The notes under the pieces were generated by a model. It did not search any database. It saw only the letters and a program-made list of their open reading frames with translations, and was not told where the DNA came from. Of a DNA stretch of 64,000 bases, positions 24,628 to 38,383 are shown piece after piece. Within the stretch, counting starts at the first letter, position 1. Each line of letters starts with the position of its first letter. Source of the stretch: an uncultured Acidobacteriota bacterium (GTDB taxonomy: Bacteria; Acidobacteriota; UBA6911); the NCBI GenBank assembly GCA_963773605.1, contig CAVZBT010000002.1, positions 277,088 to 341,087 on the forward strand. Reading direction: 5' to 3'. The translations under genes were made by a program, and so were the position numbers.

Positions 24628-26130
24628 ATGCGACAAAGGAAAGTCGTTTTCTTCTTTCCGGCATTCTCCAGCCTGGAAGCCACCGCGCCGTTGGGTATCC
24701 TGGCGGTTTCGACGCCACTCCTCCGTGCCGGTTACGCCGTCCGCATTGTCGATTCCACAATCACTCCGCAGTTCCAAAAGCGCGTGCTGGAAGAACTCGA
24801 GGGTGCTTTGTGCCTGGCGGTATCCCTCGTCACGGGTCCGATGATCCGGGAAACCGTGCAGATAGCCCGCGAGGCGAAGCGGCTGTATCCGAACCTCCCT
24901 GTGATTCTCGGCGGATGGCATCCGTCGCTTCTGCCTGACCAGACCCTGGCCGCCGAGTACGTCGATGTCGTAGTGGTTGGGCAGGGCGAGGAAGCGTTGC
25001 TCGATGTGGTGCAACGGCTCGAATCGGGAGAGTCCCTGGCAGGGATCCCGGGGGTGGGCTACAAACAGGGGGGCGAACTCGTCTTCAACACCCCGAGGGC
25101 GGTGAAGCCGCTCAGTTCGATGCCGCCCAAGGCCTACCACCTCGCCGACTTCGACGCATACGAGAGAGTGTGCGGACGTCGCTGGGCGATGTACATCTCG
25201 AGTCTCGCGTGCCCCTACAGCTGCTCGTATTGTACCAATGAAGGGGTATACGGGCGCATGTGGAACGGGCTCGAGGCAAACCAGGTGGTCGAGGAAATGA
25301 CGGACCTGGTTTTGCGATACCGCCTGCAATTGCTCTGGGTTGTAGACGACAATTTCCTGGTGGACCGCGAGCGCGCCGTGTCCATCGCCGAGGGGCTGGT
25401 CCGGCGGGACGTTCCGTTCGACTGGAGCATCCAGGCATCGACGAACCTGGTGAACCGTCTGGATGTGGATCAGCTGAAACTCCTTCGGCGCGCGGGACTC
25501 TCGCAGATCTGCCATGGCGCTGAATCGGCGTCGCCCAAGGTGCTCAAGTTGATGAACAAGGATTTTCAGAAGCCCGAGACCATCTACGCCGTGGCTGAAA
25601 AATGCGTCCGGGCAGGCATAAGGCCTTCATTCAACGTGATATTCGGATTCCCCGGCGAAGGCGAAAAAGAACGCCGCGAAACGATCCGATTCATCATGGA
25701 CGTCTGCCGTCACATCCCCGGCGCCGAGTTCTGGACCAATATTTTCACACCCTACCCGGGATCACCGATTGTGCGCAAGGCGGCGGAACTGGGGATCGAG
25801 CTGCCGGCGGCCTTCGAAGGGTGGGCGGATTACTTCCCCCGATACACGGTTCTTCCCTGGCTGAAGGGTCGAAAACATCGCCGCGTACAGGTCATGAGGG
25901 ACTACCTCCGGGTCGCATTTGACCGGATCCCGATTGCCGCCGACCGGACAAGTGCGGCGACGCGGTGGGTCCGTCGGGCGATCAGCGTGCCGGCGCGCTG
26001 GCGGCTCGACCATGACGTTTACGCCGTACCATTTGAGATCTGGCTGAACACCGCGATGCGGCGGGTGGCCAGCGCCCCAAAGCCCAAGGTCGATGCCCAG
26101 CGCCTTTCCGCGGAACCGGTTTCCTGTTAA
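24628..26130 (+). CDS. Cobalamin-binding radical SAM enzyme 1
   Basis: PLGILAV, GGWHPS, GQGEE, CPYSCSYC, VDDNF, GAES, PYPGS. Confidence 0.92.
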   Translation: MRQRKVVFFFPAFSSLEATAPLGILAVSTPLLRAGYAVRIVDSTITPQFQKRVLEELEGALCLAVSLVTGPMIRETVQIAREAKRLYPNLPVILGGWHPSLLPDQTLAAEYVDVVVVGQGEEALLDVVQRLESGESLAGIPGVGYKQGGELVFNTPRAVKPLSSMPPKAYHLADFDAYERVCGRRWAMYISSLACPYSCSYCTNEGVYGRMWNGLEANQVVEEMTDLVLRYRLQLLWVVDDNFLVDRERAVSIAEGLVRRDVPFDWSIQASTNLVNRLDVDQLKLLRRAGLSQICHGAESASPKVLKLMNKDFQKPETIYAVAEKCVRAGIRPSFNVIFGFPGEGEKERRETIRFIMDVCRHIPGAEFWTNIFTPYPGSPIVRKAAELGIELPAAFEGWADYFPRYTVLPWLKGRKHRRVQVMRDYLRVAFDRIPIAADRTSAATRWVRRAISVPARWRLDHDVYAVPFEIWLNTAMRRVASAPKPKVDAQRLSAEPVSC

Positions 26131-26177
26131 ACGCCGGGGTGTCGGGTGATGATGATGTCGCCCCTCAAGAGAAGTCG

Positions 26178-35751: not shown

Positions 35752-36764
35752 AGGACATGCACGTCATCGAAAACCTGCCGATCCTGGTCCTGTACCCGCA
35801 CAACCGGTGCAACTGCCGCTGTGTGATGTGCGACATCTGGAAACTCGACGCCGTCGTGGAAATCGGGATATCCGAGCTGGAGCGGCACGCGAGCGATATC
35901 GAAAACCTCCGGGTCCGGTGGGTCGTTTTCTCGGGCGGCGAGCCGCTGATGCATCGGGATCTCTTTCTGTTCAGCGATTTCCTGCGGGCGAGGGGCATCC
36001 GTACCACGATACTCAGCACCGGTATACTGCTGGCCCTCAAGGCGCGCGATATCGCGCGCAGTGTCGACGATGTGATTGTCTCGCTCGACGGTCCCGCCGG
36101 GATTCACGACAGGATTCGCCGGGTCCCGGGCGCGTTCGGCCAGCTGGCCGACGGGGTGCGGGCAGTCCGGAGTCTGAAGCCCGACCTCCCCGTCGCCGCC
36201 CGCACAACGGTGCAGCACGCGAATTTTTCGGTTCTGCGCGAGACCGTCGAAACGGCACAGGCATTGGGACTGCAGTCGATCTCGTTCCTCGCTGCGGACC
36301 TGACCTCGAAGGCATTCAACCGTCCCGCAGGATGGCCTCCCGCACGGCAGGCGCAGATCGCCCTGACGGAGCGGGAAACGGCCGTCCTGGAAACCGAGAT
36401 CGAGGAATTGATCAAGGACTTGCCGAAGCTGCGCGGGTTCGTCCTGGAATCCCCCGAAAAGTTGAGGCGCATCGTGCTTCATTTCCGCGCGCATCTGGGG
36501 CTGGCGGAACCACGCCCCCCCCGATGCAACGCCCCCTGGGTGTCGGCCGTCGTCGAGTCGGACGGCAGCGTCCGACCCTGCTTTTTTCACGAGGCGGTTG
36601 GGAACCTCAAGGAGGGCTCGCTGCGCGGAATCCTGAATGGTCCCCGAGCCCTCGAATTCCGCCGGGCGCTGGACATCGCCACGAACCCGGTTTGTGCCCG
36701 GTGCGTGTGCTCGCTCCACCTGGGGGATGCGGGCGAGCAGTCCCAAATCCGGAGGACAAGCTGA
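35748..36764 (+). CDS. Radical SAM enzyme with twitch/SPASM domain
   Basis: CNCRCVMC, SGGEPL, SLDG...HD.IR, CNAPW..DGSVRPC...CARCVC. Confidence 0.9.
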   Translation: MKDMHVIENLPILVLYPHNRCNCRCVMCDIWKLDAVVEIGISELERHASDIENLRVRWVVFSGGEPLMHRDLFLFSDFLRARGIRTTILSTGILLALKARDIARSVDDVIVSLDGPAGIHDRIRRVPGAFGQLADGVRAVRSLKPDLPVAARTTVQHANFSVLRETVETAQALGLQSISFLAADLTSKAFNRPAGWPPARQAQIALTERETAVLETEIEELIKDLPKLRGFVLESPEKLRRIVLHFRAHLGLAEPRPPRCNAPWVSAVVESDGSVRPCFFHEAVGNLKEGSLRGILNGPRALEFRRALDIATNPVCARCVCSLHLGDAGEQSQIRRTS

Positions 36765-38383
36765 TGGATCCGGTGGGACGCGGGAGCGCGACGATGCGGA
36801 ACCCCCTGCCAACGCTGGCAGGTCGAGGCGTGCTGCTGGCGCTCATCGCTGCGGGCATCGCGTTCCGCCTTCTTGGCCTCGGGTGGGGCATACCAAGACC
36901 GCTGCCGCCGGGCTCCACGAACTATCGCAATTCGTTCCACATGGACGAGGACAACTATCTCCAGGGCCTGTCCAGGACCGCGCCGCGCCGGTGGGACTTC
37001 GATGTGCGGGACTATCACTGGGGGACTCTGCAGTTCTACCTCGTTGCGGGCGCACTTCACGTGGCTCACCTGGCCGGCTACCTCCCACGCCCCTGGCGAG
37101 AGTCGTTCGTCGGCCCTCACCCCGAAGGGATGCCGCGGGTGTACATCGCCGGCCGGGCGGTATCGGCCCTGGCGGGAATCCTGACCCTCGTTGTGGTTTT
37201 CGGGATCGGACACCGGCTGAAGGACGCCGACACCGGCCTTGCGGCAGCCGCGTTCGCAGCCGTGGCACCCCTGCACGTCCTCAATTCGCACTTCCTGACC
37301 TCCGATGTCACGATGGTGCTGCTGCTGCTCGCATCGTTCTATTTCTTCGTGCTCGGCATCGACGGCGGAGGTGTCCGGTCTCGGGTCGCAGGCCTGTTCT
37401 CGCTCGGGTTGGCCATCTCGGCCAAGTACAACGCCGCATTCCTGATTCCCCTGTGGCTTTGCCGCGATCTCGGCCAAAAGGAAATCCCGTTCAGACACAA
37501 GCTGCTCGGCTACGGAGCCCTCGCCGCGGGTTTTATCGCCGGCGAGCCTTATGCGCTGGTTCACCCTCGGGAACTGGCAAGCACCCTCTACCGGGCGAAT
37601 GTGTTGACGACCGACGCGATGCGGCCACTGTTGCTCCCATGGGGGCACATACTGCTGCAGCAGGCCGACTCGCTGCTGCATTTCGGCCTTCAGTGGACCC
37701 TGGCCATCCCGGCGCTAATCGGACTGGTCTTTTGCCTGGTGCGCCCCTCCGGGAAGAGAGCGGCTCTGGCCGGTTCCGTCGCCCTGATGACGGCATCCCT
37801 GGTTGCGGCGAGATGGCCGATGATCCGGTACACATTGCCGATCATTCCGCTGGCCGCCATTGCGGCAGCCCTGTTTGTTGCCGAAATCCCGGTGCGCAAC
37901 TCATCCCGGCCCCTGGTGGTTGCCGGCCTGGCCTTATTGCCCGGGCTGGTCAGTTACGCCCAGGTGTGCGTCCTGACAACCGAGCATCCAGCCAATGTCG
38001 CCTTCGACTGGGTACAGGCGCACGCCGCCCCCGGGAACCGAGTTGGCCAGATCTGGCCGGAAGTGCCGCCGCTTGATGCGCGCCGTTACCGGGTGGAGCC
38101 GCTGGAAGGCCTCTTTGCAGGGGAGGGAGCCCCGCACATGGGTCAAGAGTATCTGATTCTGGACAATCTCCCCATTCAACCGTTCAGCGGGGAGTTCGTC
38201 GAGGGGTTGCGGCAGGACTACGTCCTGCTCGCCGAGTTTCGCTCTGATCCGCGCGTCGGGCGCTGGGTGCTCGACGAAGGAGGCGCTCCTCATGACTGGA
38301 AGTACACTCATCCCGTGGTGCGGATCTACGGGCGCAGGCTCGGGAAAATCGCGGCCGGAGCCGCCGTCCCGGCCCGCCAGTAA
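36764..38383 (+). CDS. GT-C fold (ArnT/GT39-like) membrane glycosyltransferase
   Basis: FHMDE loop after TM1, GRAVSA, SHFLTSD, SAKY, RYTLP. TGATG overlap. Confidence 0.82.
   Translation: MDPVGRGSATMRNPLPTLAGRGVLLALIAAGIAFRLLGLGWGIPRPLPPGSTNYRNSFHMDEDNYLQGLSRTAPRRWDFDVRDYHWGTLQFYLVAGALHVAHLAGYLPRPWRESFVGPHPEGMPRVYIAGRAVSALAGILTLVVVFGIGHRLKDADTGLAAAAFAAVAPLHVLNSHFLTSDVTMVLLLLASFYFFVLGIDGGGVRSRVAGLFSLGLAISAKYNAAFLIPLWLCRDLGQKEIPFRHKLLGYGALAAGFIAGEPYALVHPRELASTLYRANVLTTDAMRPLLLPWGHILLQQADSLLHFGLQWTLAIPALIGLVFCLVRPSGKRAALAGSVALMTASLVAARWPMIRYTLPIIPLAAIAAALFVAEIPVRNSSRPLVVAGLALLPGLVSYAQVCVLTTEHPANVAFDWVQAHAAPGNRVGQIWPEVPPLDARRYRVEPLEGLFAGEGAPHMGQEYLILDNLPIQPFSGEFVEGLRQDYVLLAEFRSDPRVGRWVLDEGGAPHDWKYTHPVVRIYGRRLGKIAAGAAVPARQ

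Follow-up and report, generated by a model that had tools for sequence, protein, structure and literature searches.

Gene content of the locus

The window, a stretch of 64,000 nucleotides from an uncultured Acidobacteriota bacterium, contains a block of eleven packed genes on the + strand at positions 24628-38383. All eleven open reading frames claimed by the initial annotation are present, and Pfam assigns the domains it named. Five genes encode B12-binding radical SAM (rSAM) enzymes and three encode class I methyltransferases; the other three specify a TRZ/ATZ-type amidohydrolase, a SPASM/twitch rSAM enzyme, and a PMT_2 GT-C glycosyltransferase. The gene overlaps were found as described (ATGA at 30494, 31366, 32334, and 35748, GTGA at 33791 and 34504, and TGATG spanning 36762-36766), as were six CxxxCxxC motifs at nucleotides 25210, 26754, 28330, 29712, 32919, and 35808. 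Profile searches of the eleven reading frames returned no NRPS, PKS, terpene cyclase, or exporter domain, and a six-frame PqqD/RRE search of the window gave no match, as had been claimed. The count of nine SAM-using enzymes agrees with the domains, although the proposal that all nine methylate or rearrange one moiety is interpretive.

The first rSAM gene, B12_1 (24628-26130, +, 500 residues), matches PF02310 with 61.1 bits and PF04055 with 76.8 bits and carries the motif CPYSCSYC at residue 195. Over 100 metagenomic sequences are related to it at 72-85% identity, and its AF2 model (pLDDT 85.7) superposes at TM 0.62-0.70 on every solved cobalamin rSAM enzyme. Its paralogue B12_2 (26139-27677, +; 43% identity to B12_1) has an ambiguous start codon, either GTG 26139 or ATG 26178. 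B12_3 (27679-29121, +; PF04055 67.9 bits; CPYHCNWC at residue 218) has a weaker B12-binding domain, with a PF02310 score of 29.6 bits, just below the cut-off of 32.1. B12_4 (29106-30497, +), which is 32% identical to B12_3, and B12_5 (32334-33794, +), which bears a CxxxCxxC motif, both match the Pfam B12-binding and Radical_SAM domains, and the top PDB sequence match of B12_4 is MgmA (9ccb, E = 1.1e-16). In a quick maximum-likelihood tree of 71 sequences, the B12-rSAM paralogues form separate orthogroups (SH-aLRT of at least 97). B12_2 has its own orthogroup of 6 rows (SH-aLRT 100), and those of B12_3 and B12_5 have 14 and 19 rows; B12_4, with 18 rows, is the B12 paralogue kept most widely. 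Host families recur within each of these orthogroups, and the divergence of the paralogues therefore preceded the spread of the cassette. The paralogues presumably do different jobs.

Three methyltransferase genes are interspersed with the rSAM genes. MT1 (30494-31369, +; Methyltransf_25, 66.3 bits) overlaps B12_4 by its ATGA and reached no NCBIfam cut-off. MT2 (31366-32337, +; Methyltransf_11, 57.4 bits) has a zinc-ribbon-like CxxC...CxxC stretch at its N terminus, and MT3 (33791-34507, +; Methyltransf_11, 67.4 bits) begins with a GTGA overlap. Their matches to sugar methyltransferases are restricted to the generic SAM-binding core. The amidohydrolase (34504-35751, +, 415 residues; Amidohydro_1, 77.9 bits) belongs to the TRZ/ATZ, nucleobase/nucleoside deaminase-like group, and its HxH, H-x-x-E, H, D, and CPxSN positions are invariant in 12 orthologues. 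The nearest solved chains, at E values from 1.9e-18 to 8e-8, are 4dyk and 4gbd, which we take to be Pseudomonas MTA deaminase, together with 8-oxoguanine deaminase and the MTA/SAH deaminase 4f0r. A much better housekeeping 5'-deoxyadenosine/MTA deaminase-like gene lies elsewhere in the home genome (384 versus 54 bits for the cassette copy), and the cassette amidohydrolase may therefore act on a pathway intermediate.

The twitch-like rSAM enzyme (35748-36764, +, 338 residues) matches PF04055 with 49.4 bits and PF13186 with 46.4 bits. Pfam calls its C-terminal domain SPASM, yet that domain holds only five cysteines (260, 278, 316, 319, and 321), four invariant and one nearly so among 25 relatives, which makes the label "twitch" reasonable. 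BlsE is both its sole PDB sequence match (E = 2e-11 over residues 19-144) and its top Foldseek match (TM 0.68/0.70, E = 7.6e-16), although the likeness is remote, with 20% identity and a TIGR04466 score of 55 bits against a cut-off of 400. The peptide maturases SkfB, CteB, SuiB, and anSME follow close behind in the fold list, which also includes the TDP-sugar enzyme DesII.

The block closes with the GT-C gene (36764-38383, +; PF13231, 47.1 bits; six hydrophobic windows). Across a 117-nt gap, the transcription unit probably extends into a GT4 gene fused to a priming polyprenyl glycosylphosphotransferase (38501-40360, +; Bac_transf 203.6 bits, Glycos_transf_1 87.5 bits), whose TIGR03025 score of 275.7 bits is just below the cut-off of 295.55. 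On the - strand lie a second, divergently transcribed PMT_2 GT-C gene (22470-24209; PF13231, 28.7 bits), with its true start probably downstream of 24209, an HprK-like P-loop kinase (21466-22581; weak Hpr_kinase_C/TIGR04352 matches), and an NTP_transf_5 nucleotidyltransferase (20282-21469; PF14907, 153.9 bits). These are accompanied on the same strand by a Wzy_C protein with an Ig-like insert (18471-20363), a GT4 glycosyltransferase (17285-18526), and another Wzy_C protein (15996-17564), all assigned by domain search. No NDP-sugar dehydratase, aminotransferase, epimerase, or Wzx flippase gene was found among the window ORFs scanned.

A conserved ten-gene cassette among glycan genes

Comparison with 24 related loci (4 MAG contigs and 20 further loci) reveals that the first ten genes (24628 to 36764) are a conserved cassette of Acidobacteriota. 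Ten genes are colinear in three loci (L002, L006, and L009) and nine in four others (L010, L011, L012, and L018). At least one B12-rSAM gene stands beside the twitch rSAM gene in 22 of the 24 loci, and at least four do so in 14. Conservation as a unit had been named beforehand as a test, and it is borne out by the seven colinear loci and by the well-supported paralogue orthogroups. A sub-block of B12_5, MT3, amidohydrolase, and twitch rSAM recurs in related loci. In L001, the amidohydrolase-twitch pair adjoins a PIG-L sugar de-N-acetylase, and the twitch rSAM gene occurs in unrelated contexts in L003, L023, and L025.

The GT-C gene at 36764-38383, an ArnT-like enzyme central to the earlier argument, did not hold its place: tblastn found matches in none of the 24 loci, and this query did not find it in four of five cassette-bearing genomes. 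It is a local, lineage-specific neighbour outside the conserved cassette, so the proposed eleven-gene unit stands for its first ten genes only. Similarly, the orthologue of the second PMT_2 gene adjoins the cassette only in L006 among the 24 loci.

The twitch rSAM gene was detected in 21 of 401 genomes of the phylum and in none of 30 genomes of one genus of the same family. Within the order, it has matches in 13 of 51 genomes, of which only 7 reach 61% identity. Such a patchy, accessory occurrence is typical of surface-glycan loci. The cassette also shifts relative to the same neighbours, lying between the Wzy_C and NTP_transf_5 genes in L006 and after the PMT_2 gene in the window. We propose that it is an ancient, mobile tailoring unit of Acidobacteriota.

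Ten of the 24 loci, spread over five host families (f1, f14, f38, f56, and f97), carry GT4 genes, which are contiguous and co-oriented with cassette genes in L020-L022, L024, L007/L008, and L014; the fetched stretches of the other 14, several of them short contigs, contain none. Wzy_C genes occur in 5 loci from three families. Orthologues of the Wzy_C protein with the Ig-like insert adjoin the cassette in 5 loci, and L024 has the same architecture. A phosphoglycosyltransferase gene lies directly upstream of the cassette in L024 and directly downstream in the window, and L024 also holds a Polysacc_synt flippase fragment. As a baseline, only 8 matches to Wzy_C and 31 to Glycos_transf_1 occur in the whole home genome of 6.70 Mb. 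The neighbourhood counts overstate the evidence because related genomes are not independent. The recurring neighbours are glycan-assembly genes, which favours the earlier suggestion of a modified sugar attached to the envelope.

Proposed role and alternative explanations

Every enzyme of the block scored below cut-off for all curated NCBIfam families, HpnR, HpnJ, BchE, PhpK, and BlsE among them, in agreement with the initial annotation that no characterised pathway matches. Its view of a conserved unit in a glycan context likewise stands, whereas the role given to the GT-C enzyme and the lipid alternative are not supported. We put at about one in two the probability that the cassette is a previously undescribed module in which rSAM enzymes tailor an envelope glycan of the Wzy type, and it probably builds an unusual modified sugar.

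We infer its substrate and each of its reactions as follows. Within the cytoplasm, the enzymes would modify a carbohydrate building block destined for a Wzy-type envelope glycan, such as an exopolysaccharide, an O-antigen-like chain, or a protein-linked glycan. The GT4-phosphoglycosyltransferase fusion and other GT4 enzymes would assemble the repeat unit on undecaprenyl phosphate. Enzymes of four B12-rSAM orthogroups, one of them duplicated here, together with the twitch rSAM enzyme, may perform radical C-H chemistry on a nucleotide-activated or lipid-linked sugar, with C-methylation, dehydration, decarboxylation, and ring rearrangement as candidate reactions. The three class I methyltransferases would add O- or N-methyl groups, and the deaminase-type amidohydrolase could strip an amino or amidine group from an intermediate or clear adenine-containing by-products. 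The product would be polymerised or ligated by the Wzy_C proteins and, in this genome only, may be further decorated in the periplasm by the two PMT_2 enzymes.

The cassette might instead make a diffusible natural product that is glycosylated or of nucleoside type, comparable to blasticidin or an aminoglycoside, with the neighbouring glycosyltransferases decorating that product with sugar rather than building a surface polymer. The closeness of the twitch enzyme to BlsE, the intact catalytic residues of an amidohydrolase of the nucleobase/nucleoside deaminase group, and the appearance of the aminoglycoside diol dehydratase AprD4 in the sequence and fold matches of the B12 enzymes are consistent with such a product, as is a cassette deaminase that may act on an intermediate, given a better housekeeping copy elsewhere in the genome. 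However, all these similarity scores are far below family cut-offs, and comparison of the 24 loci shows no conserved association of the cassette with an exporter, a resistance gene, a scaffold synthase, or a regulator. The recurring Wzy_C proteins, priming phosphoglycosyltransferase, and flippase fragment are builders of lipid-carrier polymers, and we regard a diffusible product as unlikely.

Maturation of a ribosomal peptide or protein by polytheonamide-like multi-methylation, with the substrate encoded elsewhere, seems less likely still. The best, though sub-threshold, matches of the B12 enzymes include ApyD and rSAM_ocin_1, both of RiPP systems, as well as the protein methylase MgmA. Peptide maturation is a common role of SPASM/twitch enzymes, and in the twitch fold search SkfB, CteB, and SuiB rank between 2 and 7. 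The HprK-like gene adjoins the cassette in 5 of 24 loci and NTP_transf_5 in 2 of 24; according to part of the literature, proteins of both kinds are also known from lasso-peptide clusters, which counts against the glycan reading. However, PqqD/RRE domains are absent from the window and from the surroundings of the cassette in five other genomes, and neither a protease nor a peptide exporter is present. No ORF of 25-90 residues is conserved across loci, the only two clusters of such ORFs each joining the near-identical L011 and L012, and no ORF of at least 70 residues is conserved save the enzymes and antisense shadows. The overlaps between genes also leave no space in the operon for a precursor.

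Equally improbable is tailoring of membrane lipids, by mid-chain methyls or rings on the membrane-spanning lipids of acidobacteria (branched tetraethers, iso-diabolic acid) or by remodelling of glycolipid or hopanoid head groups. In its favour, the host is itself an acidobacterium, and HpnJ ranks first or second among the NCBIfam matches of B12_2 and B12_3. The B12-rSAM enzymes Gmm and GrsA/B methylate and cyclise lipids while Cds contracts a sugar head group, as excerpts of PMC13459092 describe; likewise, excerpts present branched-tetraether pathways as "excluding C5/C6 methylations" (PMC10087280) and the pathway as "not yet fully constrained" (PMC11868695). Against this alternative, raised by the initial annotation, stand HpnJ and HpnR scores of 55-116 bits (cut-offs 578 and 650), at most one hydrophobic window in each of the ten cassette proteins, a cassette restricted to 21 of the 401 sampled phylum genomes, and no fatty-acid, ether-lipid, glycerol, or hopanoid gene among the annotated ORFs of the window and the 24 loci.

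Comparison with known systems

BlsE (PDB 7vob) is the cytosylglucuronate decarboxylase of blasticidin S biosynthesis and acts on a nucleoside sugar acid. Like the twitch enzyme, it is a small rSAM protein with a reduced C-terminal Fe-S domain, and its substrate is a sugar. Unlike the cassette, BlsE belongs to an actinomycete antibiotic cluster without B12-rSAM partners.

The B12 enzymes share the N-terminal B12 Rossmann domain, the rSAM barrel, and CxxxCxxC with AprD4, TokK, OxsB, CysS, TsrM, and MgmA, and the B12_1 model superposes on the solved members. GenK, a cobalamin-dependent rSAM enzyme of the carbohydrate/small-molecule group, has the same architecture. However, the best scores of the cassette's B12 enzymes are 127-138 bits against a cut-off of 481 for BchE, and no family cut-off is reached. 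Moreover, four to five distinct paralogues stand together here, and their setting is a Wzy-type glycan locus, not a cluster for secondary metabolites. All five have a sub-threshold match (31-74 bits, cut-off 400) to TIGR04295, "B12_rSAM_oligo," a family predicted from context to serve oligosaccharide synthesis and presumably part of a rhizobial oligosaccharide-type cassette. That system has one B12-rSAM enzyme, whereas the cassette has four to five and a twitch rSAM enzyme.

Ring contraction of a lipid head-group sugar by the rSAM enzymes HpnJ and Cds is an instance of radical chemistry on a carrier-attached sugar (for Cds, excerpts of PMC13459092). In contrast, the HpnJ scores here are 100-116 bits against a cut-off of 577.6, with no hopanoid or tetraether genes nearby. 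Among solved structures, the amidohydrolase is closest to MTA/SAH/5'-deoxyadenosine deaminases (4f0r, TM0936) and keeps their metal and catalytic residues. It scores 66 bits in the 5'-deoxyadenosine deaminase model against a cut-off of 522 and is a divergent paralogue, the home genome having a much closer copy elsewhere.

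Gene content and genomic setting

The home genome comprises 6.7 Mb in 25 contigs and is 82% complete, and the named relatives of the window proteins are from Acidobacteriota, the closest being Bryobacterales and Terriglobia MAGs. Pfam domain assignment reveals eleven plus-strand ORFs within 24628-38383, which encode five proteins with B12-binding and Radical_SAM domains (B12_1 to B12_5), three class I methyltransferases (MT1-MT3), an Amidohydro_1 protein, a protein with Radical_SAM and SPASM domains (the twitch rSAM, 35748-36764), and a PMT_2 protein (GT-C, 36764-38383). The gene set listed for this region by the initial annotation is thus confirmed with a named domain for all eleven ORFs, and the six CxxxCxxC motifs and start/stop overlaps described there are exact. 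The first ten genes (24628-36764) are referred to here as the cassette.

Downstream, after a gap of 117 nt past GT-C, a single ORF at 38501-40360 joins an N-terminal GT4 glycosyltransferase to a C-terminal polyprenyl glycosylphosphotransferase (Bac_transf phosphoglycosyltransferase); a single hydrophobic segment separates the two parts, and this fusion may add the first two sugars. The opposite strand upstream of the cassette encodes a second PMT_2 protein (22470-24209), an HprK-like P-loop kinase, an NTP_transf_5 nucleotidyltransferase, one GT4 protein, and two Wzy_C proteins, one of which has an Ig-like insert. Because the GT4-phosphoglycosyltransferase fusion lies downstream and Wzy_C, GT4, NTP_transf_5, and PMT_2 genes lie upstream, the cassette operon is embedded in a glycan-assembly locus of ~24 kb (15996-40360). 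The core of a Wzx/Wzy locus is present in the window, namely a priming phosphoglycosyltransferase (Bac_transf, 203.6 bits), two Wzy_C proteins, and two GT4 domains, and the subset of ORFs scanned contained no Wzx flippase, export, or chain-length protein. A promoter/terminator scan gave the same counts as shuffled sequences (2 versus 2.8; 13 versus 12.8) and is therefore uninformative on the transcription unit. The sequencing runs listed include no RNA; the four DNA entries come from a single study and have shares of 0.08-0.20.

Several other features were observed in the window. The O-antigen ligase-like Wzy_C protein at 18471-20363 carries its Ig-like insert as an N_BRCA1_IG domain, and the same architecture occurs beside the cassette in a distant family (locus L024, 1441-3306). 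At 20282-22581, the NTP_transf_5 nucleotidyltransferase and the HprK-like kinase are paired, as in peptide-modification systems, but the window encodes no PqqD partner for the pair. The divergent intergenic region between the second PMT_2 gene and B12_1 contains 2.8 copies of a 117-nt unit at 99% identity (24148-24478). As this unit has 541 blastn matches in the home genome, which are spread over 21 contigs and include 254 of at least 100 nt, it is a dispersed REP/MITE-like element; it gives spurious long ORFs on both strands. Farther away, the stretches 3707-7366 and 47863-49350 hold two CN_hydrolase genes, a 4Fe-4S ferredoxin-domain protein, and an ATP-grasp protein, and a CN_hydrolase gene also lies near the cassette in locus L021. 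The GuaA-like protein at 41791-43167 scores below equivalog cut-offs (273.9 versus 338.75), and its match covers only the C-terminal ATP-pyrophosphatase part of GMP synthase, with the first ~150 residues outside.

Conservation and mobility of the cassette

With the twitch rSAM as the conservation anchor (E ≤ 1e-30), a phylum-wide sample of 401 genomes gave matches in 21. The home order accounts for 13 matches in 51 genomes, seven of them at 61% identity or more, one split, and five at 32-36%, while one genus had none in 30 genomes. In genome G404 (C4:92700-95529), a twitch rSAM orthologue with 48% identity is present in two pieces, residues 5-134 and 133-325, which lie ~1.85 kb apart, and it may be interrupted by an insertion. 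Several genomes that carry the cassette are complete or almost so (for example G179, G259, G317, and G169, in 2-3 contigs each), and cultured isolates may thus be available.

We compared 24 loci, namely 20 stretches around twitch rSAM matches and four named MAG contigs, with all window proteins. At least one B12-binding radical SAM (B12-rSAM) gene adjoins the twitch rSAM in 22 of these loci and at least four do so in 14, and the amidohydrolase is likewise present in 14/24. All ten genes occur in order in L002, L006, and L009, and nine in L010, L011, L012, and L018. A shorter version, consisting of MT1, B12_3, a B12_1/2-like gene, B12_4, B12_5, MT3, the amidohydrolase, and the twitch rSAM, is found in other families (L020-L022, and partly L004). 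The conserved-operon check proposed by the initial annotation thus returns a set kept as a unit, with seven loci having nine or ten genes in order in addition to the 14/24 with at least four B12-rSAM genes.

A quick-search maximum-likelihood tree of 71 B12-rSAM sequences, from which rows under 80% coverage and the B12_3 of L006 (a stop in its HSP translation) were left out, places B12_1, B12_2, a third B12_1/2-like group, B12_3, B12_4, and B12_5 in separate clades with SH-aLRT support of at least 97. Since host families repeat within each of these clades, the paralogues are old and presumably not redundant.

GT-C has the sequence features of a polytopic membrane protein of the PMT_2 type, with a domain score of 47.1 bits against a cut-off of 26.1 and six predicted hydrophobic windows. 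The initial annotation had counted it as part of the unit; this was not borne out, as none of the 24 loci has a match, and with the same query it was not found in four of five cassette genomes. GT-C was thus rejected as a cassette member.

Locus L006 has the same neighbours as the window, but the cassette occupies another junction among them and is adjoined by an IS200-like transposase. The different junction among the same neighbours and the adjoining transposase therefore indicate that the block moves as a cassette. At the position of the GT-C gene, this same-family genome has the IS200-like (Y1_Tnp) transposase and a 159-aa ORF (L006 14980-16138).

A proposed role in envelope glycans and rival readings

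Glycan genes accompany the cassette in other genomes. The stretches compared include GT4 genes in 10/24 loci from five host families, and Wzy_C+Ig orthologues in 5/24 from three families, both counts coming from related genomes that are not independent; HprK-like genes are present in 5/24. As a baseline, the whole 6.7-Mb home genome gives 8 Wzy_C and 31 Glycos_transf_1 matches. In L020-L022, the genes Wzy_C, GT4, MT1, B12_3, and those that follow are contiguous on one strand. In L024, GT4 and phosphoglycosyltransferase genes are directly followed by cassette genes, with the Wzy_C+Ig gene and a flippase (Polysacc_synt) fragment nearby. In L007 and L008, the MT1-MT3-B12_5 arm is continued by two GT4 genes and a flavin-reductase-domain gene. 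In L008 (3507-4523), the latter is co-oriented with this arm, and its product of 338 aa, which ends in a Flavin_Reduct domain, could serve the radical enzymes as their own electron donor; the ORF at L007 16373-17374 was taken as its equivalent by position only. Overall, the reading we consider most likely, at a probability of about one half, is that the radical SAM enzymes of this hitherto undescribed cassette tailor an envelope glycan of the Wzy type.

Four to five B12-rSAM paralogues in Wzy-type loci would imply envelope sugars with radical-installed C-methyls or rearranged rings, in a phylum that ranks among the most abundant in soil and sediment, and the cassette would also yield several new enzyme activities. 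B12-dependent radical SAM enzymes have been described mainly for antibiotics, cofactors, lipids, and peptides. Our literature search found no surface-polysaccharide pathway with B12-rSAM enzymes and no published description of the cassette, and the words polysaccharide, glycan, lipopolysaccharide, and capsule are absent from the text of a 2026 review of these enzymes; the search on PF14907 likewise returned nothing related. In metagenomes, B12_1 has over 100 relatives that share at least 72% identity with it, and 8000 twitch rSAM candidates were scored, all at E ≤ 0.001; because these relatives are numerous, the product of the cassette is probably common in the environment.

The 24 loci compared have no recurrent gene for lipids, polyketides, peptide synthetases, or export. 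A glycosylated or nucleoside small molecule as the product is unlikely, although it remains the foremost of the other readings. Maturation of a peptide or protein appears improbable: six-frame searches of the window, and of the cassette surroundings in five further genomes, detected no PF05402 (PqqD/RRE) domain, and the loci were found to share no conserved small ORF, so that the absence of a precursor peptide and RRE reported in the initial annotation holds. Lipid tailoring, offered there as an alternative, is about as improbable as peptide maturation, being without support anywhere in the gene context. Among the rivals it would matter most. Three papers (PMC10087280, PMC11868695, PMC13459092) still leave the enzymes of tetraether C5/C6 methylation unassigned, and Solibacter usitatus homologues in Figure S10 and the tables of PMC10087280 might bear on this reading. 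The evidence leans against its specific form, which we regard as very unlikely: that the cassette adds the extra methyls in mid-chain, and perhaps rings, to the membrane-spanning lipids of Acidobacteria, or alters the glycosidic head group of these lipids. If this form were true, the glycosyltransferase neighbours would reflect a glycolipid and no polysaccharide, and it would provide the first genetic handle on the methylation behind tetraether palaeothermometry.

Cassette enzymes and characterised families

The five B12 enzymes have the sequence features of cobalamin-dependent (class B) radical SAM enzymes and are predicted to bind and use cobalamin. Four of them score 51.9-61.1 bits for the B12-binding domain PF02310, above the 32.1-bit cut-off, and B12_3 lies slightly under it at 29.6 bits; CxxxCxxC is present in 5/5, with PF04055 at 52-77 bits. 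NCBIfam scans covered 20 proteins, and no cassette enzyme reached any curated cut-off. The characterised families tested were BchE, HpnR, HpnJ, PhpK, ApyD, KedN5, TsrM, BzaD, MgmA, AprD4, and the ladderane-type family. For BchE, HpnJ, ApyD, PhpK, and the ladderane-type family (cut-offs 360-750), scores of the B12 enzymes are 100-138 bits, the best being 138 bits against 481 for BchE and the rest lower relative to cut-offs of 251-750. GenK, HpnP, and GrsA/B do not appear among the matches listed. With all cassette proteins below these cut-offs, the earlier statement that the operon matches no characterised pathway stands.

Structure did not narrow the choice. In a fold search, the B12_1 model matches TsrM, MgmA, TokK, OxsB, AprD4, and CysS, and is about equally good against every solved cobalamin radical SAM enzyme, so that the search does not discriminate. 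The nearest ESM Atlas clusters are unnamed radical SAM clusters, for which Acidobacteriota are the main source and Pseudomonadota a minor one, and give no functional lead. PDB sequence searches with MT1-MT3 gave matches confined to the generic SAM-binding core. Beyond the cassette, ~17 kb past the window end (G000:C2:358119-359210), there is a further B12-binding radical SAM gene, which shares 27% identity with B12_4.

In the amidohydrolase (34504-35751), His75, His77, His187, Glu190, His217, and Asp267 are invariant in 12 orthologues, corresponding to the HxH, H-x-x-E, H, and D that we take to be the metal/catalytic residues of TRZ/ATZ (deaminase-type) amidohydrolases. The protein is nearest to MTA/SAH and 8-oxoguanine deaminases. 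Its scores for the TRZ/ATZ and deaminase models are 66-84 bits, with cut-offs of 444-540, and it falls short of the 5'-deoxyadenosine/MTA/SAH deaminase cut-offs (66.5 versus 522 for NF005557; 36.5 versus 779 for NF012037). A role as by-product scavenger is weakened by a far closer, housekeeping-type 5'-deoxyadenosine deaminase-like gene elsewhere in the home genome, which makes a dedicated role in the pathway no less likely than by-product clearance. In locus L001, genes for a PIG-L sugar de-N-acetylase and a PLP decarboxylase adjoin the amidohydrolase-twitch pair.

The twitch rSAM contains a PF13186 SPASM domain (46.4 bits against a cut-off of 21.5). A full SPASM domain has a seven-cysteine motif and two auxiliary clusters. 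The twitch rSAM has five C-terminal cysteines only, of which Cys260, Cys278, Cys316, and Cys321 are invariant and Cys319 nearly so, and this fits a single, twitch-like auxiliary cluster as judged from the alignment. Together, the hints from the twitch rSAM, the amidohydrolase, L001, and B12_1, each of them weak, fit a sugar or nucleotide-sugar substrate. Against the PTO1314, NirJ, and BlsE models, the twitch rSAM scores 55-77 bits (cut-offs 306-650), with 55.1 bits against 400 for TIGR04466 (BlsE). BlsE is thus its nearest relative and not a fellow family member; the predicted structure (pLDDT 91) is likewise closest to BlsE, followed by peptide maturases. BlsE, the cytosylglucuronate decarboxylase, decarboxylates a nucleoside glucuronic acid.
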